Source of the DNA: a virus
Taxonomy: Duplodnaviria; Caudoviricetes
Strand: one strand, 5' to 3'
Virus record (IMG/VR): IMGVR_UViG_3300003320_000620
Location: 1 to 64,000 of that record
Length of the DNA stretch: 64,000 bases
Under the pieces are notes generated by a model. It was not told the DNA's origin and ran no database searches. It saw nothing but the letters and a program-made list of their open reading frames with translations. Positions 972-55,607 of the stretch are shown in pieces. The translations under genes and the position numbers were made by a program. Position 1 is the first letter of the stretch. The number at the start of each line of letters is the position of its first letter.

Positions 972-3449
972 TCACTTCTCCTCTTCAGTTTCTTCAGCTT
1001 CACTTTCGCTATTACGTCCAACCAATGACCAATAATCATTGGTCATCATTGCGGAATCAACAACGAAATTACCTAGAGCATAGTTTTGCGATATTAGCAC
1101 TGTAAAACGATCTTCGTCATTACGGCCAGCGGCAACATGCAGCCTTGCCAAGCCTAGTTTGTGCTCTTCCTCGGTTTGGCTATAGGTTATCACTACGTCG
1201 GCGTGGGCTACCTTTGAATACGCTTCTGCAGTATTCTCAAGCCCTACCTGTTTGGCTTTTTCGCCTGACCTGTTGCTCTGACTGACTATGGCCCCAGCAA
1301 TGTTCCGCTTGATCAAAAGCCCCCTAAGCTCCTTATAAGTTTCATCCAATGAAAGCCTGAAATTGTGCTTGTCTATTTTCATCAGGTCTGGGTAATCCAC
1401 TATTAACAATTCTGGCGTAAACCTGTGGGTGTTTTCCAAATTATCTAGGTAAGCTGCCAATTGAGGAACAGTTAACGCCCCTGTTGGGAACTGCTTCACT
1501 ACGATATTGCTGAATACCCTTAAAGCCCACCGATCAATAGATCGCTCCAGCTTTTTTCTGATGTTTGGGTCATCCATAGACATGGCAGGCGCAACCCTGA
1601 CATCCTCAAAGTCAGTGATCCTGCCTAATTTGTCACGGGCGAATTTGGTGACCTGTACTGGGTCCTTACGCTTGGCCAATGCCAGCATGGCTTGGAAATA
1701 ACGCTGAGAGCAGCGGTCTTCTGACATTTCAAGCGTGATATGGACCACCCTAACCCTGTGCATTAGGGCCATTTTGGCCAAATGAATGAGGCCCCATGAA
1801 TTGTGGACTACGATATTGTTTGCAACAAAGTTGTGGGTTCCTTCAACTGCAAGATCATAAGTTTCAGCCTCACCATGGGGTTTTATAGATACAACCCTGT
1901 CAAAGAAAATTTCACCAAACTGGTCACGTACCAAATAGGACAATCTATCAGGTCGACTGCCATTACCTGCAGCCATTTTAGCCAGTTTTTTACCTTTTGA
2001 TCCTAACAAACCAATTTCTTCATGTAGTTTTTTAATTTGACGGCGTCCTCTCACAAGTAAGGACCAACTGCAATAGGGGCACCCAGCAACTGTTTGCCAA
2101 CGTTCTCTGACTTTTGAAACAATTCCAAATCTTGTTAGCAAATTATTGATTTGCTGCATCAGCACAGCGCTTGTTGTGGAATATTCAAAGTCCGAATCAG
2201 CGTAAACTGAGCCGTCACAAGTAAACAAAGCCTGAAGAAAAACTGCAGTGTGTTCTTTGTCTAAAAGACCAAACCATTCAGGCAACTGCTTTTGGTTTGA
2301 CTTTTTTTCCATCAAACCATCACGCCTTAAAAGGTCAGCGACCAAATTACGGTCACCCTTTCCAACAACATAATAATGATCAGGTGCACCTTTTGCTTGT
2401 GTCAATGCGCAGTTATAGACACTAAGACAGCGCTCAAGATCAGTTACTATCTCCTTTTCTTGTTTTGTGAAAGTTGGCGTATGTGGTTTGCTCATACTTC
2501 CATCGGCTATCATATAACCTAATATCTTTAGGTATTCCTTTGAAGCAACCATTGTGCCAAAAGCAAGCCTTAGGGGAACAGCAATGCTATGCCCTACGCT
2601 TATTTCAGACACTGTTTTCCAACCATCTTTAGTAAGCAGACGATGGTTATTTGTGACAATCAGGGTACGCCCTGATCGCGTCTTAACCTCTAGAACAGGT
2701 TTCTTCCCATTAGCCGTAAGTTGTGCTTGTTTAGATTCAAACACACCAGTCGCTTCATTAAAGCTTACAACACAGTCCCCATCTTGTATATTTTCAATAG
2801 GAATGTAGCGGCCAGTATCTAATTGAACCAATGTCCCGACTGCAAGGCATTTCCCTCGCTTCGCATTGGCTATGAGCAACCACAGTTCTTTAGGAACTGG
2901 CCCTAAACCACGTCGGTCCAATTCAACAATGCCTGTAGGCATTGCCTGTTCACTAATATCAAGGAACCTTAGGGCACGCTTCTTATCATTAAGAAATGTC
3001 CCTGGGTCAAATAAGCTAAGCGAATTATGCCTAGAGCCAGCAATCAGCTTTTCAGCTTGTTCTAGCGATTCTTCGGTATCACGCTGCAGGGCTTTGGTTA
3101 GCTCAACAGCGACAGAACGCAGAGCCTGCCTTTTGATGTAGGTCTCAAGCTGAGATAGAACATATTCCCTATTGAGGGTGTCCTTTACAGCATGGATGCT
3201 ACCAATAATGTCAACGTAGAGTTGAGCTTCCCGCTTATTCTCACCCTCAAGCTTGTCAGTCAGCAGATCAGGTAGGTGGTCGCCAGCTGGCTGCTTAAAG
3301 CGGTCCAGGTAGTCATAGCATCTGGCAGCTATGACCCGGTAAGGCCCACCATAGAGTTCAATTGCTATGGCCCCCCTTACTATGGGGGCACCCTCCTTAT
3401 CAAAGGCAAGGAGGGTAATAATGTTCTCCTGTAGGGCACCAAGAAGCAT
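972..3449 (-). CDS. dnaB: DnaB-like replicative helicase, intein-containing
   Basis: Walker A ANAKRGK|S is split by an intein. Also HITLEMS, Walker B LLIVDYPDL, SQSNR and the C-terminal AAGRN motif, all typical of DnaB/RecA-fold helicases. Confidence 0.9.
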   Translation of the reverse strand: MLLGALQENIITLLAFDKEGAPIVRGAIAIELYGGPYRVIAARCYDYLDRFKQPAGDHLPDLLTDKLEGENKREAQLYVDIIGSIHAVKDTLNREYVLSQLETYIKRQALRSVAVELTKALQRDTEESLEQAEKLIAGSRHNSLSLFDPGTFLNDKKRALRFLDISEQAMPTGIVELDRRGLGPVPKELWLLIANAKRGKCLAVGTLVQLDTGRYIPIENIQDGDCVVSFNEATGVFESKQAQLTANGKKPVLEVKTRSGRTLIVTNNHRLLTKDGWKTVSEISVGHSIAVPLRLAFGTMVASKEYLKILGYMIADGSMSKPHTPTFTKQEKEIVTDLERCLSVYNCALTQAKGAPDHYYVVGKGDRNLVADLLRRDGLMEKKSNQKQLPEWFGLLDKEHTAVFLQALFTCDGSVYADSDFEYSTTSAVLMQQINNLLTRFGIVSKVRERWQTVAGCPYCSWSLLVRGRRQIKKLHEEIGLLGSKGKKLAKMAAGNGSRPDRLSYLVRDQFGEIFFDRVVSIKPHGEAETYDLAVEGTHNFVANNIVVHNSWGLIHLAKMALMHRVRVVHITLEMSEDRCSQRYFQAMLALAKRKDPVQVTKFARDKLGRITDFEDVRVAPAMSMDDPNIRKKLERSIDRWALRVFSNIVVKQFPTGALTVPQLAAYLDNLENTHRFTPELLIVDYPDLMKIDKHNFRLSLDETYKELRGLLIKRNIAGAIVSQSNRSGEKAKQVGLENTAEAYSKVAHADVVITYSQTEEEHKLGLARLHVAAGRNDEDRFTVLISQNYALGNFVVDSAMMTNDYWSLVGRNSESEAEETEEEK
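1800..2849 (-). mobile_element. Canonical class 1 intein with LAGLIDADG endonuclease (350 aa) in the DnaB P-loop
   Basis: Starts CLAVGTLVQL and has block B VTNNHRLL, ILGYMIADGS, FLQALFTCDGS and block F TYDLAVEGTHNF. Ends VHN followed by Ser(+1). Confidence 0.95.
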
Positions 3450-9405: not shown

Positions 9406-9924
9406 TTAATGTTTACGAGCAGAAAGGTGATACCGGGTAGCAGGCCTATTTGCCTGCCCAGCCACTTCTTTAGTGGTTACTTTGTAACCTTTCGCCCTCA
9501 ACTCATTGAGGATATTGTATTGTACGGTTCCTGTTTTTGCCTTTACTTCGGCCAAGGTGGCGCCCTTAGGCGCAGAATACATGGCGGCAGCAATGCTGCG
9601 TGCAGTTCCCTCACGGAATCCATACCTGTCGACCTTAGCCTCTTTGGCAGGCTTCTTAGCTGTTTTAGCCTTACGAACACCCTTGGCTTTGCCATTGGCC
9701 TTAGCTTTCTGCTTCTGCCGCTTGGCCTTTGGCTTTGAAACCTTCTCTTCAGAATTCAAACCCTCAACCTCGACTACAGGCTGTTCCCAATCAGCAGGTA
9801 GTTCCTGCTCACCAACCCAACCAGTTTCCTGAGTTTCCATCTTTGGTTCTGGGATGACTTCCTGCTTAACCTCTTCGGTCAGAGGCTTGCTCACATCATC
9901 ATACGTATCGTTCATCAAACTCAA
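9406..9924 (-). CDS. Lys/Ala-rich putative DNA-binding protein with DUF3489-like winged HTH (paralog 1)
   Basis: Acidic N-terminus, K/A-rich linker and REGTARSIAAAMYSAPKGATLAEV motif. Confidence 0.7.
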   Translation of the reverse strand: MSLMNDTYDDVSKPLTEEVKQEVIPEPKMETQETGWVGEQELPADWEQPVVEVEGLNSEEKVSKPKAKRQKQKAKANGKAKGVRKAKTAKKPAKEAKVDRYGFREGTARSIAAAMYSAPKGATLAEVKAKTGTVQYNILNELRAKGYKVTTKEVAGQANRPATRYHLSARKH

Positions 9925-18652: not shown

Positions 18653-19235
18653 TTCAGGGTGTCCTTTCAGGTTGAAAGCACCCTAAAGCAAGCCGGTGTC
18701 AGTATTTATCACATGGAGGAGGAGTGCAAGCTTGCTGGTATGGTGTAACGTTGCGCTGTGAACCTGTCACGGCCAGGGTGCGTAAAAGATATCACCTCAG
18801 TTGGTCAGATGTGATTATGTGCCGCAACCTGAAAACCAAACCCTGTAACTATTGTGTTTTTGTATTGACAACCTTTTGATGTAACGATTCAAACCTCAAC
18901 TACCCTAGTATTAGACCTTATGCAGGGTTAATGTCACCAAGCAGTTTTGGATTCACTGTTTGTTTGACTACCTGTTAGATCAGCGCGCAACACAGTGGCC
19001 CGCCTTGAGTGGAGTGGGGCGGGAGTTTTACGTAAGGGCTAGTTGATTGCCAGTATCAGGCAATGTCAGGTGAAACCATTACAGGGTACGGCATGCTCAG
19101 GCATGCACGGCACACGCGGCCCAGTAGGGCAGCAGACGCCCATGGGCAGCATAGCTTGCAACCGGGCGCGCGGCACTTAAGCCACCCTAACCCCGGTACA
19201 ACCATCATCCTCACGCCCCTATCTGGGGCACCGCT

Positions 19236-19643
19236 TCAAACCTTCGTTATGAGATTGCCCTGCAAGTCAGGCACAAGCACGCCTTTACGGCGTGCTGATT
19301 TATGCCACAAAAACATCCTGACTTTGACTTGGGGGGCAACATAGGCACCATGGGCCAGTTGACCGCGTATAGCACGGCCCTTTGCCCTACAGGCGCCTGT
19401 ATAGCGCTCAATAGGCGTTGCCCTGACAGGTGACTGGCTAGTACGCAAACCCGTGCCAGTGCTACGCCAAAAGCCCGTATTCAGGCGCATAAAGCCCGCA
19501 GGCCGTTGACGTATAGTATCAGTGTTGGCAACACCTGGAGGTACCGGAATGACAAGCACGGGCTGCCGTGCCGCGCTACGGGGTACAACCCCTTGCTTAG
19601 CGCGGCGCCGACGGCCGTATTGCCCGTATTGTGGTGCCCTCAT
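19236..19643 (-). CDS. Arg-rich hypothetical protein
   Basis: 135-aa ORF inside a compositionally unusual island; coding status uncertain. Confidence 0.4.
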   Translation of the reverse strand: MRAPQYGQYGRRRRAKQGVVPRSAARQPVLVIPVPPGVANTDTIRQRPAGFMRLNTGFWRSTGTGLRTSQSPVRATPIERYTGACRAKGRAIRGQLAHGAYVAPQVKVRMFLWHKSARRKGVLVPDLQGNLITKV

Positions 19644-20138
19644 GTGACTTGGCTCATAACATTCAAGTGCGACGCTGTTGACCAGCTGTTAGGCGGCTAG
19701 ATGTGGGTGCTTTGTTATGCGTAGGGCCACATTGTGAAACGGGGTGACCACCCGCCTATGTGTTTGGGCCACATAGTCACATTGGGCAACGGCCAAACGG
19801 GAATGATGGATTTTTGACCCCGTACCGTTGCCCCTAGTTGTATGGTATTGTGGCACAGGCCTTGGGATGATTGGCGGGAATTTAGGATGAGTGTTCCAAA
19901 CCTCTGTTCGGTAGGTAACGAAGAATGCGCATGGATGACTTTGTCCTTAAAATTGCAGCCTCCCTTATTCGTGGAAGGAGGAAGGGGATAGCGGCTGGCA
20001 TCTTCGACCAAGAAGATTATTTAGGTTATGACGAAGCGCTTATCCGAGCCAATGACGTAGCGCATGCTCTAAAGCCGCTGTTCCAACCTGATTAGACCCG
20101 TATTTAGGGTTGGAACTTAAAAGTGAGGAGAAAGCAAA

Positions 20139-20500: not shown

Positions 20501-20806
20501 ATGAGTATGCGTAACAACGAGTACCCAGCTCTTCTGAACTGGCCAAGAAGTGCTGGTAGAAAGCCTGATCATAAGGTCCTTAAAAACATTCATGAGAAGG
20601 CTTTAGCAAGGAGAGGATCAAAGGATGCTGTGGCCTTAGCTATGGCCCTGAGGCCGGAAGGTGCTACACAACCACAGATCATTTCAGTTCTTGGCAGCCC
20701 ACACAGAAACAAGTTTAATGAACTTGTTAGGAAACGTAAGGTTAGGCTGTCAAAGTTTGCGTCAAAGCATGGCTTGACGGTGTATAAGTTGGAACTCAAG
20801 GTTTGA
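20501..20806 (+). CDS. DUF3489-like winged-HTH protein (paralog 2)
   Basis: RRGSKDAVALAMALRPEGATQPQI motif, GGAG SD. Confidence 0.7.
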   Translation: MSMRNNEYPALLNWPRSAGRKPDHKVLKNIHEKALARRGSKDAVALAMALRPEGATQPQIISVLGSPHRNKFNELVRKRKVRLSKFASKHGLTVYKLELKV

Positions 20807-23191: not shown

Positions 23192-23582
23192 GAAAGCTAT
23201 GGGTGTTCTAGGCGGTGCCCTGGCGACGCTACTAGCAAGGGATGCCCTACAATCAAAAGAGAAGATGAATCTTGTCCAAAGTTTTGGGCAGTTAAACCCA
23301 GCCCCTGCTCAAGAACAAACACCAGCCCACCTTTCCTTGCAAGATATAGCTAGGAAATACCTAACTACAGATTCAATGAAAGCAGCCTTCAGGTCCAAGC
23401 TATTTAGGGAAGATCACCGCTATATCTACGGCTTAGATGAGGACATTGCCTCAAAGAAGTCATGGTCTCAAGCCGCTAAGATCGCCTTTCAGAGGCAGAG
23501 GATTGTAGATCAGCGCGAAAAGATAGCGTTTGAAGGCGAAGGGAACGCATTCCAATGGTTGATTGGCTTCACCAAGCTCTAA
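23178..23582 (+). CDS. Hypothetical protein with a twin-arginine-like N-terminus
   Basis: MLNRRKAMGVLGGALATLLA resembles a Tat-type signal. Confidence 0.5.
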   Translation: MLNRRKAMGVLGGALATLLARDALQSKEKMNLVQSFGQLNPAPAQEQTPAHLSLQDIARKYLTTDSMKAAFRSKLFREDHRYIYGLDEDIASKKSWSQAAKIAFQRQRIVDQREKIAFEGEGNAFQWLIGFTKL

Positions 23583-24613
23583 AGTATGAAGTATGGGCCA
23601 CCGAATTAACAGCAGCTTTTAAAGATTCAGGAAACACGCTAGAAATGATGGTAGTTTTCAGGGTAGATGAGCAAGAATGAAAGACAGATGCTTAGATATT
23701 TATGTGTGGTCGGTAATCGCAGTGGTAACGTTAGTTATAGTGTTAGATTATTCCACAAAGATCAGGAACACAAAATCTATGCAAGAACAACATAGAACAA
23801 TGACCTTTGGAAATAAGCCATGAACACTAGAAACCTAGAAAGGCTATTCTACGGATTAATGATCCTGTTAACCCTATTCTGGCTAGCAGCAGCTGTAGTA
23901 GTGACCCATTTCGTAATCAAGTTTTGGTAGACAGATGAACCAAAGAATTCACACAGAACAAGAGCTAGATGAGATGCAGGATGACCCTGAAAAGCTAAGA
24001 CGCTATTACAAAGGGATCATAATGCACTGGAAGAGGCTGGCATATGAGATGAGGCAGGAATCAAGGTATCTGGGTAGAACCTACCCAGTGCAGGGCTATA
24101 GACAGACATTTCAGGACGGACAAGACCTAATTAAATGGTCAGAAGCATTAGACAGAGCGGCCAATACTCTTGCAGAACACCTAGATGAGTTTGTTGAATA
24201 TACAGTTAGTAGATGAGCAGATTTGAAGCTATCCTCTAAGATCACCCCTAGAAGGAATTGATCCTAGGATAGCACCGATGTGCTGGTTTTGTTGCTGAAT
24301 ATGGTAGATGAGGTGGCAAGAATCGGTGGATTTGGGAGGAAGGAATTTGGCCTCCCTCCGACTTCTTCTGTCTTAGTCTTTCATCCGACGTCATAAATAC
24401 ACGACGATAGACGAAGAAGACTTTAAAATTACTTAGATGAGCCTGTCTAATCGGCATCGGACACCCCCGACATAATAGCCGACACAACAGATTCGGCGGT
24501 GGGCTCGTCGACGTCGCCGCCGAATCTGTTGTGGATGAGCCGATTAAGCTAGATGAGCCTGTCTAATCGCCGTCGGAGGCTAGACGAGCCAGACAGCAGA
24601 TGAGGTAGATGAG
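23435..24613 (+). repeat. Polar cluster of AGATGAG heptamers
   Basis: Exact copies at 23435, 23665, 23967, 24047, 24183, 24211, 24306, 24435, 24551, 24598 and 24607. A longer direct repeat TAGATGAGCCTGTCTAATCG occurs at 24434 and 24550. Confidence 0.75.
23935..24216 (+). CDS. Hypothetical protein
   Basis: 93-aa ORF. Confidence 0.55.
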   Translation: MNQRIHTEQELDEMQDDPEKLRRYYKGIIMHWKRLAYEMRQESRYLGRTYPVQGYRQTFQDGQDLIKWSEALDRAANTLAEHLDEFVEYTVSR

Positions 24614-24687
24614 CTAGCAAGAGCCCGACGGACTGACGCCAGCAAAGCCATAAAACTAGCCAGGGACAGGCTAGGACTTTACAGGGC

Positions 24688-24720
24688 AAAAATAAACTGG
24701 TAGGCCATGCGGCCTACCAG
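24688..24720 (-). terminator. Rho-independent terminator
   Basis: CTGGTAGGCC-GCAT-GGCCTACCAG followed by TTTATTTTT on the minus strand. Confidence 0.8.
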
Positions 24721-24882
24721 CCATTTTACGCCTTAACCGTCAATTTTGTACCAGTTGCCGTTTTCAGCGTTCAATTGGTACTTTTGGCCTTTGCCCAGCC
24801 CTAAGCCAACGCCGTACTGCTTGTGACTATGCGGCGTCATAATGGCCCGTCAATGCGTTTCACTTGCCAACGTAACGGCCAA

Positions 24883-24906
24883 CCAAGGCCTTAGCTAAGG
24901 CCTTGG
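24883..24906. repeat. Perfect 24-bp palindrome
   Basis: CCAAGGCCTTAGCTAAGGCCTTGG is its own reverse complement. Confidence 0.9.
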
Positions 24907-24938
24907 CAAGCTCAACCAGTAGCTTTTTGAGCATGTGG

Positions 24939-25616
24939 CTACTGTTGCGGCTGGTCACTCAACGCCGCGTCAACGGCCTGCTCAACGCTATGGGCAAGCT
25001 GTTGCTGAATGTCAGGGGTTGCCTGATCAGGCTCAGCCGCGGGCTTTTCAGCCTTTGGCTTGGGCTTACGCTTTGAAGCCGCCGCTTTGGGCTCAGGCGC
25101 GTCACTGGTAGCCTTTTCAGCTTTGGGCTTAGTAGTACCGCCCTTAGCCTTTTGCTTACCAGCGGGCTTTGTAGCGTCACTGTCAGCACCTGCTGTTAGC
25201 GTAGCCTGAAAGCCCTGCAAGGCACGTTCAAGCGCTTTCACGCCCTTTTGAGTGAACGTCAACCAAAACCGCCCACTGCCTTTAACCCTAGTGAAGTAGT
25301 GTAACCCCTCACCACGGTTATTGGCGCTTAACTCCCGGCTATGGTTATGAGCCGGGCCGCTGTTGAAAGCGGCTGAAAGCTCAGCAACGCTTGCCCCTTC
25401 AGGGCGTAATTGCATGGCCACAAAACCGGCTTCAGGCCCCGGCTTACGTAGCTTACCAAACGCCAAGGCCACAGTCAGCATTTCAGCCGTAGGGGCAGGC
25501 CCGGCATGCTTTACCGGCCACCCTTTCAACCAGGGCTGAAAACCGTCAACCAAAAATTGCACGGGTGTAACGGTTTTCAGTACGTCAACGTTGTTGATAG
25601 TGTTTTGAGTGGTCAT
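24939..25616 (-). CDS. DUF3489-like protein (paralog 3) with a histone-H1-like K/A/P tail
   Basis: KPGPEAGFVAMQLRPEGASVAEL motif, tail KPKAEKA repeats, GAGGTG SD. Confidence 0.75.
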   Translation of the reverse strand: MTTQNTINNVDVLKTVTPVQFLVDGFQPWLKGWPVKHAGPAPTAEMLTVALAFGKLRKPGPEAGFVAMQLRPEGASVAELSAAFNSGPAHNHSRELSANNRGEGLHYFTRVKGSGRFWLTFTQKGVKALERALQGFQATLTAGADSDATKPAGKQKAKGGTTKPKAEKATSDAPEPKAAASKRKPKPKAEKPAAEPDQATPDIQQQLAHSVEQAVDAALSDQPQQ

Positions 25617-25850
25617 AGTGTCACCTCAAGTTGTAGGGTGCCGCTAGTTGTCAACGTAGCCCTAGCCACGTTCAAAGGCACCCGGTTGTCAAAAAGCCCG
25701 GTTGCTGCGGCAACCGTGGTTTACGTATGAACCATGATGATGCGCATTACAAGCCACCAAAAACAAAAAACACAAAAAACACGTTCACAGTTGCGTGATT
25801 GCTTTGTGATTTACGGGGGGACCTTTAAGGATTTGCCCCGACCCGCCTAG

Positions 25851-25868
25851 ATGTTTCACGTGAAACAT
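25851..25868. promoter_or_regulatory. Perfect parS centromere site
   Basis: A-TGTTTCACGTGAAACA-T. The core is identical to the established bacterial chromosomal parS consensus and lies in a non-coding gap. Confidence 0.85.
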
Positions 25869-25891
25869 GCTTGACAGAGCAGGACGATGTG

Positions 25892-25916
25892 AAGTACCGC
25901 CTTAGGCGGTACTTTT
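25892..25916 (+). terminator. Hairpin/terminator
   Basis: AAGTACCGCC-TTA-GGCGGTACTT-TT. Confidence 0.55.
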
Positions 25917-26607
25917 GCACAGAGCCCAATGGAGCAGGAGGACGGCGGAGGGGAGGCCCCCAGCAAAAGAACAGGACGAGGGTGCATTCAGTTGGATTTT
26001 TCAAAAATGGTACCCCCTCCTCCCTCTAGACTCGCCTCATCCCTATACAATACGCGGCAAATTTTGACTTAACTATCTTTTTGGACAGGGCCATAAGCTT
26101 CAAGCCGTAATCCTTCACCTCCAGCTCTAACCTGGTCTATTTCTGCTCTTAACGCGATAAGGGTTTCCAGCCATGGCGACCCACCACGGGTCGGGATCAG
26201 CGGCGATGGTCTCGCGGCGTTGCGAATTCTTGATCGCGCCGATGACGGTATATTCGCTGGTCATGGTGTAGTCTTTCGGGGCGCAAATAGAGGGGATGAC
26301 TGTATTATCCGAAGAGTGACAATTTCAGTTCGTTCAAACAGGCAATCTCCGCACTTCACTTCAGGCTTTGTATCCGAATCGTAGGACGTGACTCGGTTGC
26401 ACTTTGGGCATCGCAGATGATAGCGAGTCATGATGCAATCTCATCAATGCAGCGCGAGAGCAGCATCTTCTGGATTAAAGCCTACAAAGACCTTTGTGCC
26501 ACTGCTTAATGTGCATTCTATGCCCTTCACTGTCTTTTTAGCCATTGATCTACCTCCTTGTTGATATGGATGTTAGGCCCTGGTTCTGGCCCAGGTATAG
26601 GTCTGGC

Positions 26608-35293: not shown

Positions 35294-35578
35294 ATGCCAA
35301 AGACGGCGACGACGTCGTTTACCGAAATCAAGTTTAGCCGGGAAGAGATTCTGGAATGGATCCAGTCCCACATGTCGATATTGCAACCAACCGATGCGGC
35401 GATTAATCACGGTTCCGGCCCCGGCTCTCCGGCAAAATTCATCGGGCTGACGTTTGGTGCGACCCGCGATCAGGTCGACGAGTATTTGCGCGAGGTCGTC
35501 CAGGGCCTTCCCCCGATTGGGCGTTACCAGTTCCGGCTTACAGAAGACGGCGGCGCCATGGTCAGGTGGCAGAATTGA
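35294..35578 (+). CDS. Hypothetical protein
   Basis: 94 aa, GAGG SD. Confidence 0.55.
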   Translation: MPKTATTSFTEIKFSREEILEWIQSHMSILQPTDAAINHGSGPGSPAKFIGLTFGATRDQVDEYLREVVQGLPPIGRYQFRLTEDGGAMVRWQN

Positions 35579-36402
35579 TGCACTTCATTTCCGGGCTGCC
35601 GCGGTCCGGCTCCACGCTGCTTGCAGCCATTCTGCGGCAGAATCCGCGGTTTCATGCGGGCATGTCATCGCCGCTCTCTGGCGTCGTGATGAAAGTGCAG
35701 CAAGCCCTCTCGCGCGGGAATGAGGGGGCGGAGTTCATCAGTTCCGATCAGAAGCAGCGCATTCTCTCGGGTGTGTTTCGCAATTTCTACGAGGGCTTCA
35801 CTGAGGAAGTCATCTTCGACACCAGCCGCGCATGGTGCTCCAAGCTGCCGTTAATCGCTTCCTTGTTACCGGACGCCAAGGTGATCTGCTGTGTGCGCGA
35901 CGTATCGTGGATCATGGATTCGATCGAGCGGATATTGACCAAGAATCCGCTCGAGCTGTCGGGCATCTTCGGGTTCAATCCGGGGGGCACTGTTTTCTCT
36001 CGGGCTGACGGGCTGGCATCGGCGAACGGCATGGTCGGGTTTGCGCTCAATGCCGTGAAAGAGGCATTCTTCGGAAAACATGCTTCGCGTTTGATGCTCG
36101 TTGAATATGAGGCGCTGGCGCGCGATCCGGCCGCGGTCGTCAGGCACATCTACGAGCATATCGGCGAGCCCGCATTCGACCACGATTTCACGAACGTGAG
36201 CTATGAGGCAGACGACTTTGACGCGCTGCTCGGTACGCCAGGGCTGCACAAGGTCGAAGGGCCGGTTGTGTGGCGTGAGCGAGAGACCATTCTGCCTCCG
36301 GCGTTGTTCAATCGCTTCAGCAATGATGCCTTCTGGCGTGACCAGACGCTGAACGTGCGCAAGGTGCCTGTGGTTATGCACGTTCGGAAGGGCGCGGTTT
36401 AG
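35566..36402 (+). CDS. PAPS-dependent sulfotransferase family protein
   Basis: 5'-PSB loop FISGLPRSGSTLL, 3'-PB CVRDVSWIMDS, then VEYEAL. Confidence 0.85.
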   Translation: MAELMHFISGLPRSGSTLLAAILRQNPRFHAGMSSPLSGVVMKVQQALSRGNEGAEFISSDQKQRILSGVFRNFYEGFTEEVIFDTSRAWCSKLPLIASLLPDAKVICCVRDVSWIMDSIERILTKNPLELSGIFGFNPGGTVFSRADGLASANGMVGFALNAVKEAFFGKHASRLMLVEYEALARDPAAVVRHIYEHIGEPAFDHDFTNVSYEADDFDALLGTPGLHKVEGPVVWRERETILPPALFNRFSNDAFWRDQTLNVRKVPVVMHVRKGAV

Positions 36403-39431: not shown

Positions 39432-40250
39432 ATGCGTGTGTTAGTTACTGGCGGAACTGGAACTATTGGATCAGCCATTGTTAAGCATTTAATTTCAAAA
39501 CAACACGAAGTAGTTATTCTAAGCCGTGATGAATATAAGCAGCATAGGCTTAGGCAAGAAATAGGTGATAGTACCAAATTTATACTGGGCGATATCAGAT
39601 CTTACGACACTCTATTAGACGCAATGGCTGGAGTAGATAAGTGCTTTCACGTAGCAGCCATGAAGCATGTTTCCCTTTGTGAAGAAAATCCCTATGAAGC
39701 GGTCCAAACCAACGTGATTGGAACTAAAAACGTAATAAGGACAGCAAAAGAACGATTGGTGTCAAAGGTGTTGGCAATATCTACAGATAAGGCAGTCAAC
39801 CCCATTTCAGTCCTTGGTGGAACCAAGTTTATTATGGAGAAATTGCTTAAGGCTGAAAAAAACGAACCACCATTCGTAACCAAATTTGCATCAATCCGCT
39901 TTGGTAATATTTTTGATTCGCGTGGATCAGTTTTTGATGTTTGGAAACGCCAAGCGGCATTGGGTGAACCGATAACAATAACTGATTCTAGAGCTACAAG
40001 ATATTTCATATCAATAGATAAGGCTGTGTTTGCTGCCTATAAAGCGATGCTTGCTTTTCAGGGTGGGGAAACCTTTATTGTTGATTGTGGTGATCCAGTT
40101 AACATCTCTGGTTTGGCTCATAAGCTTTATCCTGAAGAAGGAAGGACATTTGTTTATTCTGGGTTAAAAGCAGGCGAGCGTCTTCATGAAGAATTATTTT
40201 CTTCAAACGAAACACCAGAATTTGGCCCCGAAGGGTTGATGGTAGTCTAA
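39432..40250 (+). CDS. NDP-GlcNAc 4,6-dehydratase (PglF/PseB/LegB-like, Polysacc_synt_2 type)
   Basis: TGGTGTIG, SRDEYKQ, AAMKHV..CEENP.EAV.TNVIGT, STDKAVNP..LGGTK and RFGNI.DSRGSV. Confidence 0.9.
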   Translation: MRVLVTGGTGTIGSAIVKHLISKQHEVVILSRDEYKQHRLRQEIGDSTKFILGDIRSYDTLLDAMAGVDKCFHVAAMKHVSLCEENPYEAVQTNVIGTKNVIRTAKERLVSKVLAISTDKAVNPISVLGGTKFIMEKLLKAEKNEPPFVTKFASIRFGNIFDSRGSVFDVWKRQAALGEPITITDSRATRYFISIDKAVFAAYKAMLAFQGGETFIVDCGDPVNISGLAHKLYPEEGRTFVYSGLKAGERLHEELFSSNETPEFGPEGLMVV

Positions 40251-42978
40251 ATGGCCATTGAACTTGACGAGCTGGCAGGCCCAGACGGTGGTGAAGAGAG
40301 CAGGAAGCTAGCCAAGCACTGGATAGAACAGTTGTCCATGATTAAGGACAATGGCGACAATAAACGTTGGGTTAAACGTGGTGAGGATATTGAAAAGCGT
40401 TATAGGGACGAACGCAGTCGCAGTGACGAGCAAGGTCAGCGCCGCTACAACGCCCTATGGTCCAATGTTCAGATCCTTAAGCCCGCCTTGTTTGGCAAGG
40501 TGCCAATCCCAATTTGTGAGCGGCGTTTCAAAGACAAAGACCCGGTTGGCCGGGGCGCTGCTCAAATGCTTGAGCGTGCTCTAAGGAATGAGATAGAAGT
40601 TTGTGGCTTTGGGGACTCACTAAGCAGGGCCGTTGATGACTATCTTCTTCCTGGTCGTGGTGTGGTTTGGGTACGCTATGAGCCTGAATTTTCAGAAAGT
40701 ATTTCACTTCCTGTTGAGCAGGAAACTGATATTGACGCCAAAATAGGCCAAAGAGCCGTTGGCAAAAATGATGACGATGAAGATCATGATGACGGTCCTG
40801 CATCTGAGGAAGGAAAGCAAGAAGATTACAATGAAGAGGGTGAGGCTCATGAGCCACATGAACAAGCTAATGAAGAAAAGCTTCAAAGTACAGGCGATAG
40901 AATTATCAGGGAATCTACCCCTGTAGATTACATTCCCTGGAAAGACTTCATAACCTTTCCGGCTCAAGCGCGAACATGGCCTGAAGTTACCGCTATTGGC
41001 AAGCGCGTTTACATGTCGCGCAGCCAAATGAAGAAACGGTTTGGAAAGAGGATCGGCAGTGCTATTCCCTTACAGCGTGACGACCGTGGTCCTAAAACCC
41101 AAAACGCAAGCGTTGTCGTATCATCAGACCAAGACAAAGGTATCATCTACGAAATATGGTCGATTGACCACATGGCGGTTTTTTGGGTGGCTGAGGGCTA
41201 TGATTATCTTTGTGATCGCAAAGACGACCCACTAGAATTGGAAAACTTTTGGCCAGTTCCACGACCACTCTTCGCTAATTCCACCAACAACACTTTGATA
41301 CCAGTCCCTGACTATATTCAGTATCAGGATCAGGCAATTCAGATTGATGAATTAACGCAACGCATTGCTATGCTGGCAAAGGCTTGTAAGGTTGCTGGTG
41401 TCTATAATGCCGCAGCCAAAGAAATTAAGCGCGTCTTTAACGAATCCTTAGAGAACGAACTCATACCAGTTGACGATTGGGCTGCTTTTGCTCAAGAGGG
41501 TCAAGGTGTGGCTGGAAATATCAGCCTAATGCCCATCAAGGATATTATGGGTGTTCTAAATGAGCTTATTACAGTTAGGAAGTTGGCTATTGAAGATATG
41601 GATCGTCTTACTGGTATCAACGATATTATGCGTGGCACTAGTGACGCGCGTGAAACTTTGGGTGGGGTGCGACTTAAACAAAATTCAACAGGCACTAGAA
41701 TTACTGCACGACAAAATGAAGTAGCTAGGTTTGCTAGAGACATAGTTCGTATTATGGCGGACATCATGTGTCGTCATTTCAGTCCTCAATCGCTAATTGA
41801 GGCCTCAGGTGCCCTTTACGAAGAAGGGCTTGGGCCTGAAGATATGCCTGATTTGACAGAATTGCAGCCGCCAGAACAGCAGCAAATGCCGCCACAGGGA
41901 CAGAAACCGCTTGGTCTTCTGTCATCACAGGCTCAGCCAAATGTTTCCTCAGCCCCAGCCGGTTCCTAATCAGGGGCCAATGCCCCCTCAAATGCCGCCG
42001 TCTGGCCCTCCACAGGGGATGCAGCCGCCAATGGGCGGGCAGCAGCCTCTAAATGGCCAGATTTTGCCACCTCAGCAGCAGATGCCGCCTGAGATTATGG
42101 CAAAAATGAAGGCCTTTGAGCGGATTGGCAACGCTATAGAACTACTTAGAGATGAAAAACTTCGCGGATTTCGCGTAGATATTGAAGTAGATTCTACAAT
42201 TTTCCCAGATGCGGCCCAAGAGAAGGCAGATAGGACAGAATTTATCACTGCTACAACCAAATTTCTTGAGACTGCAATGCAGATGGGCTCAGTAATGCCC
42301 GAATCTATCCCACTTTTGGGCAAAATGCTGCAATTTGGCGTTAGGGGCTACCGTGTAGGCCGTGATCTTGAGGCTTCAATTGAAGAATTCACTGATGAAG
42401 CCATAAGAGCAGCCAAAAAGAAGCAAGAAAACGCTGCAACTGCCCAGAATCCGGACATGATTAAGGCTCAGGCCGATGCAAAGAAGGCCGAAAGCCAATC
42501 TCAGGTTGCTCAGATCAAGGCACAGGCCGATATTGAGAAGATTAAGGCTGATCGTGAGAACCAGCAGCAAGAATCGGCTGCTGAAGTTGAACGACAACGC
42601 CTAGAAAATGAGGGTGAGAAGCAAAACGCCCAAATGGAATATATGTCTAAACAAATTGACATACAAATGAAAATGATGGAGAAGCAACTTCTTGAAATGA
42701 AGATGCAGATGGAAATGTTTAAGGCTCAGCATCAGACCAGACAGGGTCAACAGGAGATTGAGCAGCAAGACCGTGCTATGGCGCATGACGAACAAATGCA
42801 GCAGCAGCAAGCTGTGCAGCAGGAACGTCAATCTCAGCGTGACGCTCAAATGCAGGACCGACAGATGGCTATGCAGGAGCGTGATGCTATGTTCCAGGAG
42901 CGTCAGGCAAACCAAAAGATGCAGCAACAGGCTATGAAGCCCGTCCATTCCCCTAAACCAAACCCCATACAGCAGTAG
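40251..42978 (+). CDS. Portal protein, split by a +1 frameshift near 41940-41969
   Basis: ORF 40251..41969 is portal-like (GINDIMRG, RETLGG). The homology-type tail (ELLRDEKLRGFRVDIEVDSTI) continues in the +1 frame, 41911..42978. Confidence 0.85.
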
Positions 42979-42983
42979 CGTTC

Positions 42984-43295
42984 ATGTCAACTTATGTCTT
43001 ACGCAACGGTCGGCTTGTAAACAAAGAGCGAGCTCCACCTTTAATTGAAAGATTTGGCGACGCCCCTTATGTTGTCAGCGATTGCATGCCAGAAACAAGG
43101 CATATGGTGGATGGAAATTACTACACATCAAAAGCCAAGTTCCGTGAGGTAACTAGGGCAAATGGATGTGAAGAAGTAGGAACAGAAACAGCCTATATGC
43201 TGAAGCCACGGCAGAAAGTAAAGCTAGATCGTGGCAAAAGACGCGAAGACATAAAGAAAGCTATCTACACTCTCAGAAATGGTAAGCGGAGATAA
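42984..43295 (+). CDS. Hypothetical head-module protein
   Basis: DGNYYTSKAKFRE..RANGCEEVG pattern, located between portal and scaffold. Confidence 0.75.
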   Translation: MSTYVLRNGRLVNKERAPPLIERFGDAPYVVSDCMPETRHMVDGNYYTSKAKFREVTRANGCEEVGTETAYMLKPRQKVKLDRGKRREDIKKAIYTLRNGKRR

Positions 43296-43297
43296 GT

Positions 43298-44506
43298 ATG
43301 TTGTTTGTGGACAAGTATAAGCCGTATTTCAGCCCCGACATGGAGGTTGGAGCTGAGCAAGATGTAGGGTTGCCAGAAGGCGCTATTGCTGAAAATATTC
43401 AGGAACAAGGCATTCCAGAACCTGCTGATGGCCCTGGCAGTGGTCGTAGCAAGCTTCGTAAGCAGCTAGAAACCAGCGTTGCTGAAGTAAACAAGCGAAC
43501 TCAAGAGAAGCCTGCGAAATATGTAAGCCGAGCACGTCAGGAGGGGACAGCTGCGCCGGAGGCTGAGGAAGAGCCAGAAGCCGAACAGGAAGGTCAGGAG
43601 CAGGAAGCGAAACCTGCTACAAACCCACCCGAGGCATGGGCAAAAGAGGCAAAAGCTGAATGGGCAAAAGTCCCTACAAATGCCCAAGCAGCCATTCTCA
43701 AGCGTGAAGAGGATGTGGCTAAGGGCGTGCACGCCCTTCAGTCGTATTACAGGGATCTGGAAGAAGTACTGTCACCCCGCTACGAACTTTTTAAGCAGTA
43801 CAACAAGACGCCTGCGCAGGCTGTAAATCAGCTGTTTGGCTGGTTCGATGCCTTAGGCGGCAACCCAGACCAAGCCTTCCCTGCGTTGATGAGGACGTTT
43901 AACTACGACCCAAGGCGTTTGATCCCATTTATCAACCAGCTGGGTGGACAGCAGCAACAGCAGCAGCCCGAAGGTGAGCAAGAAGTACCGCCTGCCTACC
44001 TACAATACATCAACCAGCTGGAACAGCGCGTTGCTGGCCTGACCGATGCTGTCTCAAAGAAAATAGGCGGCCTCGAAAATATGTTTGCTCAGCAGAATCA
44101 GGCCAGGGTTCAGGAGACTCTAGATGTGTGGTCAGCCAATAAGCCACACTTTGAAAAAGTTCGTGTTATGATGGGCCATCTGCTGGAGTCTGGTCAGGTG
44201 CCACCACTGCCAAATGGCGCTGCTGATCTAGACAAGGCATATGATATGGCTTTGTGGGCGCTTCCTGAAGTCAGACAGCAAGTAATGGCTGACATAGAGG
44301 CTAAGCGTGCAGCCGAACTGAAGGCTAAGCAGGATGCTGAGCGTAAAGCACAGAAAGAAGCTGCTGACAAAGCCCGCCGCGCCTCCGGTGGCCTTGGTCC
44401 TAGCGCCCCAGGCTCCCCAGTTAATCCAAACCAGTCACGCAGGCCACAGCGAAAGAGCGTTCGCGAATCCTTAGCTGATGCCATCGCAGAGGTGCGCGGC
44501 GAATAA
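43298..44506 (+). CDS. Capsid scaffolding protein (probable)
   Basis: Position before the capsid gene, acidic N-terminus, PPEAWAKEAKAEW motif, coiled coils, C-terminal SVRESLADAI. Confidence 0.8.
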   Translation: MLFVDKYKPYFSPDMEVGAEQDVGLPEGAIAENIQEQGIPEPADGPGSGRSKLRKQLETSVAEVNKRTQEKPAKYVSRARQEGTAAPEAEEEPEAEQEGQEQEAKPATNPPEAWAKEAKAEWAKVPTNAQAAILKREEDVAKGVHALQSYYRDLEEVLSPRYELFKQYNKTPAQAVNQLFGWFDALGGNPDQAFPALMRTFNYDPRRLIPFINQLGGQQQQQQPEGEQEVPPAYLQYINQLEQRVAGLTDAVSKKIGGLENMFAQQNQARVQETLDVWSANKPHFEKVRVMMGHLLESGQVPPLPNGAADLDKAYDMALWALPEVRQQVMADIEAKRAAELKAKQDAERKAQKEAADKARRASGGLGPSAPGSPVNPNQSRRPQRKSVRESLADAIAEVRGE

Positions 44507-44716
44507 ATGAATGTCTTCAGGACAGCCATAAAACTTAAATGCAAAAGGGAACTGGCTCTAATGCTTGGGGCCTACAAGCCTCATCTTCTAGAGCCGCGTT
44601 CCTATTGCATTCACGTTAAGACTGAGCTAGACAGAATTAAAGGAACACTGATCTGGCCCATAGTCAGTGATGGAACAGTTTCAGTTACGTCCAAAGGAAT
44701 AAAGATAACCTCATAG
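44507..44716 (+). CDS. Small hypothetical protein
   Basis: 69 aa, coupled to the scaffold stop. Confidence 0.45.
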   Translation: MNVFRTAIKLKCKRELALMLGAYKPHLLEPRSYCIHVKTELDRIKGTLIWPIVSDGTVSVTSKGIKITS

Positions 44717-44870
44717 CAGTTCGTGAGGACCCTCACAGGGGTAAAGGAACTGCAGCGTGGCAATGTCACTTACGACGTGTCAGTAGCTGTGGCCAGAACA
44801 AGTGTGCCAAGCGAACCACACAAAGGGTGGTGCTACTCCAAACCGGGCTAGGAAACCGAAAGGAGTAACC

Positions 44871-47800
44871 ATGGCTTTTCCTAACCTATCAGAAATCGTT
44901 ACGACTACGCTGCGAAATCGCACAGGCGAGCTCGCAGATAATATGAGCCGTAACAACGCTGCGTTGCTTAGGCTTACTAAACGTGGTAGAAGTTGTACCT
45001 AAGGTTGCCACGTAACCCAGTGAATTCGGTGAAGGCTGAGATGCTAATACCGAGCCAAGATGCAAACGTATAGTGATTACAGTCACTAAAGGGTTGCATA
45101 AGGTGTAGAGACTAGGTAGCCCCGAAAGGGTGTTACCCACGAGCGCTGGGTGTTAGTATGGATGAAGTTCCTGGTATCTATGTTATAGAGTGTGTGCCAA
45201 CAGGTAGAGTTTATGTTGGATCTTCAGTAAAGCCACTGGCTAGAATCAAGTCTCACAAAAACTTGCTTAGCAAAGGTACCCATCGTAATGTTCATCTCCA
45301 AAGGGCTTGGGGTTTGCATGGCTCTAATTCCTTTACTTTCACGGTGGTACAACAGTGTGTTGCTGAAGAGCGCTTCAAAGTAGAACAGGAATGGATAACG
45401 AAGCTTCAAGCTACTGGTAAAAATGGGTTTAATATAGCGTTCCCTGTTGAACAAGTTCTGCCAAGTGAAAGGATGTCACAGGTAAGCCGTACTTCCTGGA
45501 AGGACAAGAAAACCAGAAAGAATAGGCATGCAGGCATACTTACAAAATGGCAAGACGATGCCTTTAGGGAAAGAAAGCTGCGCGATGGCCTAAAGGCTAG
45601 AGAAGCTTTAGCTAAAAAGCGGTTAGACCCAGAATGGCGTGCTCGGATTAGTGAAAAGACAAGTAAAACTATGAAGGAGCGTGCCAAGACTGAAGAAGGA
45701 TTAAAAGCTTTGCGTGTTGCAAGTAAGATTGCTCATATGCGCAGAGAAAATGATCCTGAATTCAAAGCAAAATGTGAAGCAGGCTTGAAGTATTCGAGTA
45801 CTAACAAAGAGATAGTCCGACCAGCAGCAAATAAAGAAGCTGCTGAAGTGATGGATAAAGAGCCGTCACGGTAACAACTAAGAACCTAAAGACGTTCTCA
45901 GGTGGGCGTACGATTGTTCAAGAGCTTGTAATGGGCTCATAGTATAGTAAGAGCTTACGGCTTCAGGATACTATGATATGCTGGTGAATTCGGAGAAAAC
46001 CCAATGCCCGGCCGAAAGGTGCGGAAGGGCAACCCCGAGCCAAGCAGGCAGTTTTATGCTGCCGGGCGTGTGTAACGATCATGAACCAGCCCCGGAAGGG
46101 AAGATATGATCTGTTCTGCATGGGAACATGCAGAGGCTGACAGAAATGATCAGCCCGGCTGTAAGGACAGTCAGTAACAACTAGAAATTATGCGAACAAT
46201 CAAACCTTCCAATGGTATTCAGGATATCAATCCTTGAATATCAGCCCGTCGCAGGTCTTCTCTGCGGCTGAGTACCCGATCCGTCAAGCAGCGGTGGCTG
46301 TCTCTATCTCTGGCCTAGAGGAACTCCAGAACAGTGGAGAGGAAGCCATAATCGACTTGCTGGAGAGTCGGATAATGAATGCGGAAGACACCTTCGATTT
46401 GAGGGCCGCTGCGTAGTTAAAAGGACGCAGATGGAATGCTGGTGAATTCGGTGGAAACCCAATGCCCGGTCTAGAGTTGATGCGGAAGGGTAATACCGAG
46501 CCAAGCAAGGAACTTACAAGTTCCTGGGCGTGTGTAACGAGCATGGACCAGCCCCGGAAGGGAAGATGTGCTCTGATCTGCATGGGAACATGCAGAGGTT
46601 GGCAGAAATGACCAACCCCTTAAGTTGAAACTTAAGAGTAACAAATTGTCATGAACGGTCTTTCGCAAGGGGTGTACGGCGACGGTACTGTGGCCAACTC
46701 AGTCGGCGGCCTCCAGTTGCTTGTTTCCAGCTCCCCGACCTCAGGTGTTGTTGGCGGCATTGACCGCTCGCAGTGGTCTTTCTGGCAGAACCAATCTTGG
46801 TCAGCCAGCACGAACGGCAGCACTACCCTCAGCTCGGCTACCATCATCCAAATGATGGATGCTCTGTGGGTTCAGCTGATCCGCGGCCGTGATTCGCCTG
46901 ATCTGATCATCGCAGACAACGTCTGCTACCGCTACTACCTGAATGCCCTCCAGGCCATTCAGCGCGTTACCCAGACTTCTTCGGCTCCTGATATGGCTGA
47001 GGCTGGCTTCCAGAGCCTCAAGTATATTACGGCCGATGTGGTGCTGGATGGTGGCTTCCAGGGATTCAGCACTGATCCGCTGCCTTCCCAGGTTTCTACT
47101 AGCTCGTCTGCTGTTGGCGGTGCGCCAAGTTCGACGATGTATTTCCTTAACGAGTCGGTGACGATTCACTAACTCATGGGGCTGTTAATCAGTAAGCGGA
47201 GGGTATGATCGTTTCTTGAGAGCTTTACACTTCAAATAAAGCTCTTCTCGATAAGCAAGGATTAAATCTCGGTCCTTGCGGTTGCTACCATCACCTCGAC
47301 CTGGAAAGTTATAGGGGTGTTGGTCAATGTGGTCACGAAGGGCTAGAACTAAATCTACCTCTTCACGTTTTACGATCACATAGGGTTGTATGCGTCGAAG
47401 GAAAGGGGCAACGCCTTGGTTGTGAATGCCCCAACAAAACTGGATACGATTCTTAGGGTTTCGCAAGTCATGTCGGTTTTGGTTCAAATGACCGCCAAAT
47501 TCATCATAAAGCATCTTTATGATGGGATAGTGTGTCATGCCAATTCCAACAGCGGGGTAATAGCCCACATGGCCTTTGCGAACCTTTTTGAAGATTCGAG
47601 CAAAGCCTTCGCCGTCAAACAAGCCAGCAACGTAACGATCATCCAAGACTCAACTCCGTCAGGGGTTAACAGAATGGCAGCGAATTCGGAGAAAACCCGA
47701 TGCCCGGCTCTAAATGAGTGCGGAAGGGCGACCCCGAGCCAAGCAAGCAGAGACAAACTGCTGGGCGTGTGTAACGAACATGTGCTGTCCTCGGAAGAGA

Positions 47801-48555: not shown

Positions 48556-48601
48556 AGACACCAACAAATGTTTTTACTCCGTTAGTGAAGCCTATTATGT
48601 A

Positions 48602-49720: not shown

Positions 49721-49834
49721 CTTGACCACTTACATCTTTCTGCTAAATTCCACGTGCTCAAGCTTGGAAACCAATTCTTGCTGCGGCACCGTTGAACTGG
49801 CGTAAAAAATCGACATTCAATCAAAAGGTGCCAT

Positions 49835-50506
49835 ATGGCTCAGCCTGTCTTCTATCAAACCGTAAATAACGTGGGCGTAGACCCTACTGTCTACTACGCC
49901 GTTTCGGCGTCTGTGACGCCTGAATACCCCGCACCACCGTTTCTTGTTGGTACCCGTGCCTTCGGAAGTGATGGTTCTGAGTTTGTCTTCGTTCAAGCTT
50001 CTACTACCATTAACCCTACTGACTTTGTAATGCTTAATATGGGTTCTACTGGTGGTGGTTCCTATCAGGCAAACTCCATAACCAATACGAACGTAGTAAG
50101 TTCTTTGGGGGTTGGACTTGCCTCTACCGGCCTTGTTCTGCGTCAATCAGTGACGTACATCCCTGCAGGTGCGTACTTTTGGGCGTGCACGAAAGGCCAA
50201 TATCTGCCTGCTACTACCTCTGCTGGCTTGGCCAGCAACGCTGGTGGTGTTGCTCTCTATACGTCGGCCACTGCCGGTGTGCTAACTTCGGTCACAACCA
50301 GCTCTTCTACAGCAGCTGCTCTTGCAGGCATCATCTGCATCAACTCACTGACGGTTAGCATTCCGTCATCTATTGTACCCGGTGCTGGTGCTACAGCGTC
50401 CAATGGCTACACGGTTGGCCCAGTTGTCAACCTTAACAGCCCCCGAACCATAGTGCTGACGTCCTTGACGTTTGCTACTCTGTCCTTACCTGTGTTTTCG
50501 TTCTAA
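49835..50506 (+). CDS. Capsid decoration/cement protein (probable)
   Basis: Follows the capsid gene; GTRAFGSDGSEFVFVQA pattern; S/T/A/G-rich. Confidence 0.65.
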   Translation: MAQPVFYQTVNNVGVDPTVYYAVSASVTPEYPAPPFLVGTRAFGSDGSEFVFVQASTTINPTDFVMLNMGSTGGGSYQANSITNTNVVSSLGVGLASTGLVLRQSVTYIPAGAYFWACTKGQYLPATTSAGLASNAGGVALYTSATAGVLTSVTTSSSTAAALAGIICINSLTVSIPSSIVPGAGATASNGYTVGPVVNLNSPRTIVLTSLTFATLSLPVFSF

Positions 50507-50515
50507 ACACGACGA

Positions 50516-50539
50516 AGGGAAGGGAGAAATCCCTTCCCT
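50516..50539 (+). terminator. Hairpin after the head genes
   Basis: AGGGAAGGGA-GAAA-TCCCTTCCCT; the U-tract is weak. Confidence 0.55.
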
Positions 50540-50580
50540 CTAACAAGAGGGAAAAATGGCTGCTGCTATCTGGATAAGGG

Positions 50581-52721: not shown

Positions 52722-52739
52722 GAGCTTGCAGGCGGTGGG

Positions 52740-55606: not shown

Positions 55607-55607
55607 C

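Follow-up and report, generated by a model that had tools for sequence, protein, structure and literature searches.

Why does a transcription unit of 1.1 kb in an uncultured phage do almost entirely without a word of three base pairs that occurs once per 14.3 bp in its genome as a whole? The word is VGA on one strand and TCB on the other (V stands for A, C or G, and B for C, G or T). The DNA analysed, called here the window, is the first 64 kb of the IMG/VR virus record IMGVR_UViG_3300003320_000620 (88,094 bp), which comes from a root metagenome. An initial annotation, based on a manual scan, had claimed that between positions 24677 and 25818 each TC continues with A and each GA follows a T, with a single TCC at 25333. 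A direct count confirmed this claim and made it stronger than first stated. The interval contains 41 TC and 20 GA, and all of them are TCA or TGA save that one TCC. The block and its exception lie as follows.

24675-25818, both strands: block free of TCB/VGA by direct count, with one exception
25333-25335, plus strand: the single exception, a TCC, which on the sense strand lies inside CGG-GAG (Arg-Glu)

The genome contains 6174 TCB/VGA in total, so that about 80 are expected in the block by the genome's own frequency; the value of about 107 that had been proposed holds for uniform composition. In the genome-wide trinucleotide check suggested by the initial annotation, the block turned out to be made of the two longest TCB/VGA-free gaps of the genome, which adjoin each other (659 bp at 24674-25333 and 486 bp at 25333-25819). 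The third longest gap measures 221 bp. TCA and TGA are not depleted in the block (60 observed, 46 expected). Both ends are as abrupt as had been described: 23 occurrences of the word lie in the 170 bp to the left (24505-24674), and from 25819 on there is one per about 10 bp. Outside the block the word has its normal density genome-wide and is enriched in the flanks.

The block includes a gene for a protein of 225 amino acids (aa), P0001, and the bias passes through both this gene and non-coding DNA. When the same protein was written with the codon usage of the genome (2000 resamples), 40.5 +/- 4.9 TCB/VGA were expected in the gene, with a minimum of 23, and one was observed. Permutation of the synonymous codons of the gene itself gave an expectation of 31.5 and a minimum of 19. 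Taken together, the codon resamplings put the expected number per gene at 40-46, and the observed number is 0-2. As had been claimed, the codon choice is constrained. The gene uses none of the Ser codons TCT, TCC and TCG, the Arg codons AGA and CGA and the Gly codon GGA, and codons that stand before Asp or Glu end in T in 20 of 21 cases (164 of 166 over eight homologues). When four islands of this kind were pooled (5.3 kb), the absent tetranucleotides were only those containing TCB/VGA, and GGCC, CCGG and GCGC were 2.3- to 2.5-fold enriched. The codon controls show that amino-acid composition and chance fail to explain the depletion. Together with the tetranucleotide counts, they indicate that the banned word is exactly VGA/TCB and that selection acts on the DNA.

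It could be argued that there is no selection at all, and that the depletion is a by-product of composition, of amino acids, of mutation bias such as deamination at TC, or of recent horizontal transfer. The G+C content of the block is indeed above that of the genome (53% vs 48%). We consider this explanation hardly tenable, as it is refuted by the codon controls and by 13 further loci, described below, that keep the ban at 40-73% protein identity. Deamination at TC does not fit because the change of AGA or GGA to TGA needs transversions, and because G+C is raised, not lowered. Avoidance of GANTC (CcrM) or of restriction sites in general was ruled out, since every VGA/TCB is absent while other palindromes are enriched. 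Classical restriction avoidance differs in that it concerns host sites of 4-8 bp that are mostly palindromic, whereas here only tetranucleotides containing TCB/VGA are missing. A cause at the RNA level, a sequence-specific RNase, was ruled out too, since both strands and the non-transcribed DNA upstream of the promoter obey the ban. Thus, it is strongly supported that purifying selection on the DNA itself keeps the block free of VGA/TCB, and it is settled that the reader of the word acts on double-stranded DNA or on either strand. Selection at the DNA level against a very short motif, as the initial annotation had put it, therefore stands on the codon controls, on non-coding DNA of both strands and on the 13 loci. 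The two causes that it had proposed, a host motif-specific defence and a base modification made by the phage, stand as hypotheses.

What does the block contain? Its anatomy shows that it is one complete early unit from promoter to terminator, including the DNA touched by RNA polymerase and regulators. The parts are given in the order in which they follow each other along the gene.

25781-25818, minus strand: operator-like word-free DNA upstream of the UP element, 32-45 nucleotides (nt) long in most loci
25758-25780, minus strand: T-rich UP-like element (core GTTTTTTGTGTTTT) that occurs once in the genome and does not vary among 11 aligned loci
25724-25752, minus strand: inferred sigma-70-type promoter, with -35 TTGTAA, a 17-nt spacer and -10-like CATACG, from alignment and sequence
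25699-25716, minus strand: hairpin and T-run in a leader of about 100 nt
24939-25616, minus strand: P0001 gene, 225 aa
24733-24840, minus strand: possible open reading frame (ORF) of 35 aa inside the block
24695-24722, minus strand: intrinsic terminator closing the unit, with a 12-bp stem and a T-run (-30.9 kcal/mol, z -4.4)

The position of the transcription start is likewise deduced from alignment and sequence. Most relatives have a -35 TTGACA or TTGACT and a TA-rich -10 (TACATA/TATGTA). The ribosome-binding site between leader and gene is spelled TGAGGTGA or AAAGG, not GGAGG, and so contains no GGA. A search of 17.5-27 kb against Rfam at permissive thresholds gave no match.

Is this a peculiarity of one phage? 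Among 5.8 billion proteins searched, 18 proved to be relatives of P0001 (51-73% identity), and a profile search extended them to about 120 clusters at 50% identity. The relatives came from this large protein collection only: searches with P0001 or its alignment against viral, genome and metagenome contig collections found no related loci, and tblastn of P0001 against 50,697 phage records gave no match. The comparison took in 13 more loci (L005-L017), which come from nine or more other samples and have a protein identity of 40-73%. In all 13, a TCB/VGA-free block of 1.0-1.7 kb with 0-2 exceptions surrounds the homologue, including the locus with 40% identity (L017). The block starts just upstream of the UP element, by 32-45 nt in most loci and by 141 nt in L011; its other end, wherever the contig reaches that far, coincides with the terminator or lies just short of it. 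Its length follows the cargo, and non-homologous ORFs inside the blocks are free of the word as well. At the place of the 35-aa ORF, seven relatives carry a conserved second ORF of 83-97 aa and the others carry unrelated small ORFs, all word-free. The second protein of most relatives is a small winged-helix protein. We also considered the idea that the short contigs of relatives stop at the island edges. It proved uninformative, since these contigs run 30-370 bp past the edges; two of them begin inside the upstream part. Because the same word is banned in 13 diverged loci, cargo ORFs included, it is settled that the reader of VGA/TCB has been constant through a deep phage lineage. This argues against host defences that vary from strain to strain.

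The window itself contains a second cassette in which the word is depleted in part.

18680-19800, minus strand: second, partial TCB/VGA-depleted cassette, with about 24 occurrences observed and about 78 expected (3- to 5-fold)
19236-19643, minus strand: gene for a basic 135-aa protein in this cassette, with 6 TCB/VGA observed and about 29 expected

The matching stretches of two relatives (L005 15668-16458 and L006 9683-10358) are similarly depleted and are conserved at the nucleotide level. The 135-aa protein shows 57-59% identity among the three phages and carries the motifs RLNTGFWRG and HLWHKSARRKG. The cassette also has a stretch of about 500 nt that contains no ORF and is conserved at the nucleotide level, and a comparison of the cassette with Rfam found no family match. 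It may be a second early unit under the same kind of selection in a weaker form.

P0001 has a conserved, winged-helix-like N-terminal domain (residues 1-140) and a disordered tail rich in Lys, Ala and Pro. The structure model has a predicted local distance difference test (pLDDT) value of 68, and its best matches, to MarR-type winged-helix proteins and ScpB, are weak (Foldseek E-value > 0.1; Atlas template-modelling score 0.41-0.46). No Pfam or PHROG family was found for P0001. Judging by the model, P0001 looks like a DNA-binding protein rather than an enzyme inhibitor. A paralogue of its N-terminal domain lies elsewhere in the window.

20501-20806, plus strand: paralogue of the P0001 N-terminal domain, 101 aa (BLASTP 1e-5), with no depletion of the word

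The paralogue matches DUF3489 (PF11994) weakly (18.4 bits vs a cut-off of 29.5), and P0001 itself gave no match to this family. A proposed paralogy of P0001 with a 172-aa protein at 9406-9924 was not confirmed.

The DNA on both sides of the block also turned out to be organised.

25852-25867, no strand assigned: perfect host-type parS of 16 bp, TGTTTCACGTGAAACA, 34 bp outside the block
25819-26080, minus strand: upstream flank, with a sense strand rich in C and T and with TCC/TCG at very high density
23434-24613, plus strand: polar array of 1.2 kb with 9 exact TAGATGAG and 11 AGATGAG, densest beside the terminator
24434-24577, plus strand: two 28-nt direct repeats around a perfect 17-nt inverted repeat (24483-24533)

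In the window and in L006, L007, L008, L009, L013 and L014, parS lies 35-125 bp upstream of the cassette (L006 6128, L007 820, L008 272, L009 151, L014 683), and the parS sequence itself contains no VGA/TCB. The phage probably has host ParB loaded beside the strongest of its early promoters, be it for silencing, for positioning or to load SMC. The upstream flank repeats CCTCC, GTCC and GTCGG and has one TCB per 5-10 bp. It contains GCGAGGC followed by a run of 10-16 nt, G-rich in some loci and C-rich in others, and then TACC. A conserved GATAGTTAAGTCA box lies at 26065-26077. Matching C/T-rich flanks are found in L008 (130-370), L014 (560-680) and L010 (120-310), and the element may be cos/pac-like or structure-forming.

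Could the word be a signal for a protein that acts on transcription or chromatin and leaves the DNA itself unchanged? This could be a shut-off factor that arrests RNA polymerase or a GA-preferring coat protein, possibly P0001. The cassette would escape the shut-off by lacking the word, and the late operon would escape it through an RfaH-like factor. P0001 and the second cassette protein are predicted DNA binders, and the P0001 tail is basic and histone-H1-like; a NusG/RfaH-like gene is the first of the late operon, and parS beside the promoter suggests a protein that spreads on DNA. On the other hand, a chemical step would more typically remove a 3-bp word almost completely than binding of low specificity would, and the early replication genes, which use the word, would be shut off too. 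We therefore regard such a signal as improbable.

The window contains 16 copies of TAGATGAG, against 1.6 expected. The array of (T)TAGATGAG follows the terminator in L005-L007 and L010-L016, always on the strand opposite the cassette gene; the contig of L009 ends inside the block, and those of L008 and L017 end within about 250 bp and were not usable. It spans small convergent genes and non-coding DNA. It may serve as a set of binding sites for the cassette protein, as iterons, as a signal to stop or pause, or as a Chi-like signal. Cassette, parS and array form a compact module that is kept in every locus whose contig reaches them. The contig k-mer depth, based on two low-coverage contigs, is 7.1-7.3 over 23.5-28.8 kb and 3-5 on either side. 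Such a rise in depth could reflect a direct terminal repeat of about 5.3 kb that has been collapsed, or a higher copy number close to an origin. A 4023-bp contig of the source sample bridges both block edges, with no sign of a break there, and the contigs of the second and third runs are scattered, with no sign of preferential recovery of the island (three runs, low-coverage contigs). There are 3 DnaA boxes in the 64 kb (7 expected), and they form no cluster.

The word could also be a template site of a phage primase or of another replication enzyme, with a cassette, perhaps beside an origin, that must stay free of priming and processing. Primases do read trinucleotides, the array is iteron-like, and the depth may be doubled over 23.5-28.8 kb. 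However, there is no reason for a priming-free zone to match promoter and terminator exactly, a cryptic base defined as "not A" would be unusual, and the depth rests on two low-coverage contigs. Priming is thus a very improbable cause. The signal, priming and no-selection models are all less likely than a covalent mark on the DNA or a T5-like escape from damage.

Does the cassette escape damage? In our analysis, the main rival of the covalent mark is that the cassette is immune, in the early phase of entry, to an enzyme that damages DNA at this word. One possible source of the damage is a host defence acting at VGA/TCB, such as a nuclease or nickase, a DarT-like ADP-ribosyltransferase at T-C, or a TC-specific deaminase. 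The cassette would be expressed under attack and would encode a countermeasure, and the rest of the genome would enter later, in two steps as in T5, or the countermeasure would come in time. To our knowledge, no defence has such a 3-bp specificity, which counts against this explanation. The layout, with a strong host-type promoter, a neighbouring untranslated region rich in repeats and palindromes, and the polar array, resembles that of T5, where the injection stop signal comes after the pre-early genes (10.1101/866236). Like the pre-early DNA of T5 and BF23, the cassette has a small gene set and strong host-type promoters and would act before the rest of the genome (10.1101/866236; 10.64898/2026.04.02.716235). 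A DNA-binding protein belongs to both sets, the essential A2 in T5 and the predicted P0001 here. The repeats, the perfect 17-nt inverted repeat and the conserved polar 8-mer array may correspond to the T5 stop region, and its DnaA-box cluster has no counterpart here. The phage also differs from T5 in that a degenerate 3-bp word is removed about 80-fold over one unit of 1.1 kb, not over 10 kb, and in that no homologue of A1, A2 or dmp is present.

In T5, only the DNA of the first-step transfer is sensitive to EcoRI and CRISPR, and this restricted sensitivity also speaks for a defence. For T7-like phages, it is enough that the leading region loses a motif for them to escape a Type I system (PMC12455610). 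There, too, the position of the motif in the first-used DNA is decisive and the motif is tolerated elsewhere. Stochastic damage would also yield a graded cost per site. The difference from the T7-like phages is that their motif, which is not the same in all isolates, is a long bipartite Type I site belonging to one host strain, whereas here a 3-bp word is banned lineage-wide. Defences vary by strain, but the ban concerns one and the same word in phages from many samples whose protein identity goes down to 40%. Moreover, P0001 resembles a DNA-binding protein and not an enzyme inhibitor, the source-sample contig runs through both block edges, and the DnaA-box cluster of the T5 stop signal is missing. 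The exceptions in the islands and the word-rich neighbouring genes speak against T5-like damage of any kind. For these reasons, we think that a host defence is an unlikely cause.

The damaging enzyme could also belong to the phage. In that case, the lineage would carry or quickly produce a frequent-cutting nuclease or nickase that reads VGA/TCB and destroys host DNA. The cassette, which has to work through that phase, would be immune by lacking the word, and the rest of the genome would be outside the cell or otherwise shielded. The reader is constant in the lineage and the sharp edges coincide with a functional unit, as this explanation would predict. Chlorella viruses provide a precedent: their nickases Nt.CviPII (CCD) and Nt.CviQII (RAG) read degenerate 3-bp words of the same form as TCB. 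Like the supposed reader, these nickase/methyltransferase pairs are virus-encoded and their words have one "not-N" position. They belong to viruses of eukaryotic algae and are not known to go with a site-free cassette; in the present phage, no nickase or methyltransferase homologous to them was detected. T5 A1 is a precedent for the degradation of host DNA, and how T5's own DNA escapes A1 is stated as unclear (10.64898/2026.04.02.716235). Against a cutter, exceptions in the islands and a partial second island should be fatal or useless. The cassette contains no candidate nuclease, and the nucleases elsewhere in the genome are of the homing type (GIY-YIG, HNH, LAGLIDADG), SbcCD-like or PDDEXK. 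The only metallophosphatase of the genome (genome 78274-79278) adjoins the SbcC-like ATPase, far from the word-free cassette. In addition, the word is abundant in the genes that adjoin the cassette on its upstream side, so that not all early-entering DNA would be immune. We give a weapon of the phage's own little credence.

The reading that we slightly prefer, tentatively and from sequence evidence, is a covalent mark at VGA/TCB that is encoded by the lineage and escaped by the cassette. The packaged phage DNA would bear a base modification at VGA/TCB; the exclusion of T points to a mark in the major groove, borne by G in VGA or by T or C in TCB. Every marked site would carry a cost wherever the DNA has to be read by host proteins. 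The cassette would be required on genome entry, before any phage factor is present, and would hence be written without the word. It would enter as plain DNA, which host RNA polymerase, its alpha subunits and regulators could bind and transcribe at full speed. P0001, with the second small winged-helix protein in most relatives, may then bind phage DNA, for example the TAGATGAG array or word-containing promoters, and this binding would open the rest of the phage programme.

Several observations fit a mark. The block extends over everything that RNA polymerase must bind and read. The word is normal elsewhere and enriched in the flanks, so it is harmless or useful there, as expected of a protective mark. 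With at most two exceptions per island and a 3- to 5-fold depletion in the second cassette, a graded cost per site fits better than a single lethal cut. Marks on such short words are known. dPreQ0 occurs at GA in phage iggy, where 97% of GA sites are modified (PMC10484667), and at GA and GGC in CAjan (PMC7544227). Hypermodified T occurs at TC/TG in M6, ViI and phiW-14 (PMC6449724). The words are of 2-3 bp, contain GA or TC and number thousands per genome, and VGA/TCB is a subset of GA/TC; the sections of these papers that were consulted make no mention of a modification-free cassette (PMC7544227, PMC10484667, PMC6449724). The differences are that TGA/TCA is exempt here and that no DpdA/TGT, preQ0 or hydroxymethylase genes were found.

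Does the genome encode such a modification? The record is 97% complete and has no end repeats. Its large terminase has 53% identity to the terminases of a Microcystis phage and of Brucella phages, and megablast of the region against phage records gave no match. The early genes include a UDG-PolA fusion, a clamp loader, RecA, an SbcCD-like pair, a PDDEXK nuclease and a dCTP-deaminase/dUTPase-like protein, and most early proteins have no family match. No tRNA genes were found.

Genome 85495-88035 (L004 9495-12035), minus strand: UDG-PolA replicase, 846 aa, with an N-terminal UDG-superfamily domain

The closest known polymerases have only about 32% identity to this replicase. We counted its presence in favour of a mark; it is not specific, as N4-like phages have it as well. 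The architecture is common to SPO1, SP-10 and SP-15, in which a modified U replaces T, and to the unmodified N4-like phages (PMC10201439).

Other results weigh against a mark. A six-frame search of the genome for TGT/DpdA (PF01702) found no candidate, and its control was positive in 14 of 14 genomes. With valid controls, there was no match in the genome to C5, N6/N4 and Dam-type methyltransferases or to the thymidylate-synthase-like dUMP hydroxymethylase (PF00303). Pfam scans of nearly all ORFs of at least 60 aa found neither preQ0 genes (FolE, QueD, QueE, QueC) nor DNA glycosyltransferases. A search for Tet/JBP gave no match, but its control also found nothing, so that it is uninformative. 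Thus, no gene of a known DNA-modification family was found. Furthermore, the replication genes, which are also expressed from the incoming genome, use VGA/TCB freely. Since these word-rich genes must be read from incoming DNA, a mark cannot block transcription absolutely.

Some features of the genome stand apart from the question of the cassette. Within 39432-58377, the virion operon holds a full nonulosonic-acid pathway (NeuB, NeuA, NeuC, an aminotransferase and a dehydratase) with two Maf/MptE-like transferases, and a sulfotransferase-family gene lies upstream of the terminase (window 35566-36402). An early protein of 825 aa (window 972-3449, minus strand) is split by an intein with a LAGLIDADG domain, and the late region has a free-standing GIY-YIG gene (48602-49720, plus strand). 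The genome is rich in selfish elements.

What is new in this locus? Local loss of restriction sites in first-used DNA and short-word marks on phage DNA are already known. We have not found in print a promoter-to-terminator cassette that is purged about 80-fold of a degenerate 3-bp word and conserved to 40% protein identity. There is a reasonable chance, somewhat short of even, that an undescribed enzyme, which either makes a new base modification outside all known writer families or cuts DNA frequently, reads VGA/TCB and that this lineage evolved an immediate-early cassette of "plain DNA" which alone escapes it. If the word mirrors what a DNA-modifying or DNA-cutting enzyme recognises, the sequence gives the 3-bp target motif of that enzyme, which would be of interest for modification biology and as a tool, and the block also marks the gene required first when the phage enters. 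T5 raised the old question of how early phage DNA works while the DNA in the cell is marked or destroyed, and the finding suggests an answer that can be tested. If the plain-DNA interpretation is true, the banned word would reveal the enzyme specificity of each lineage from sequence alone, and plain-DNA cassettes would be a general, undescribed way to organise the first minutes of phage infection.

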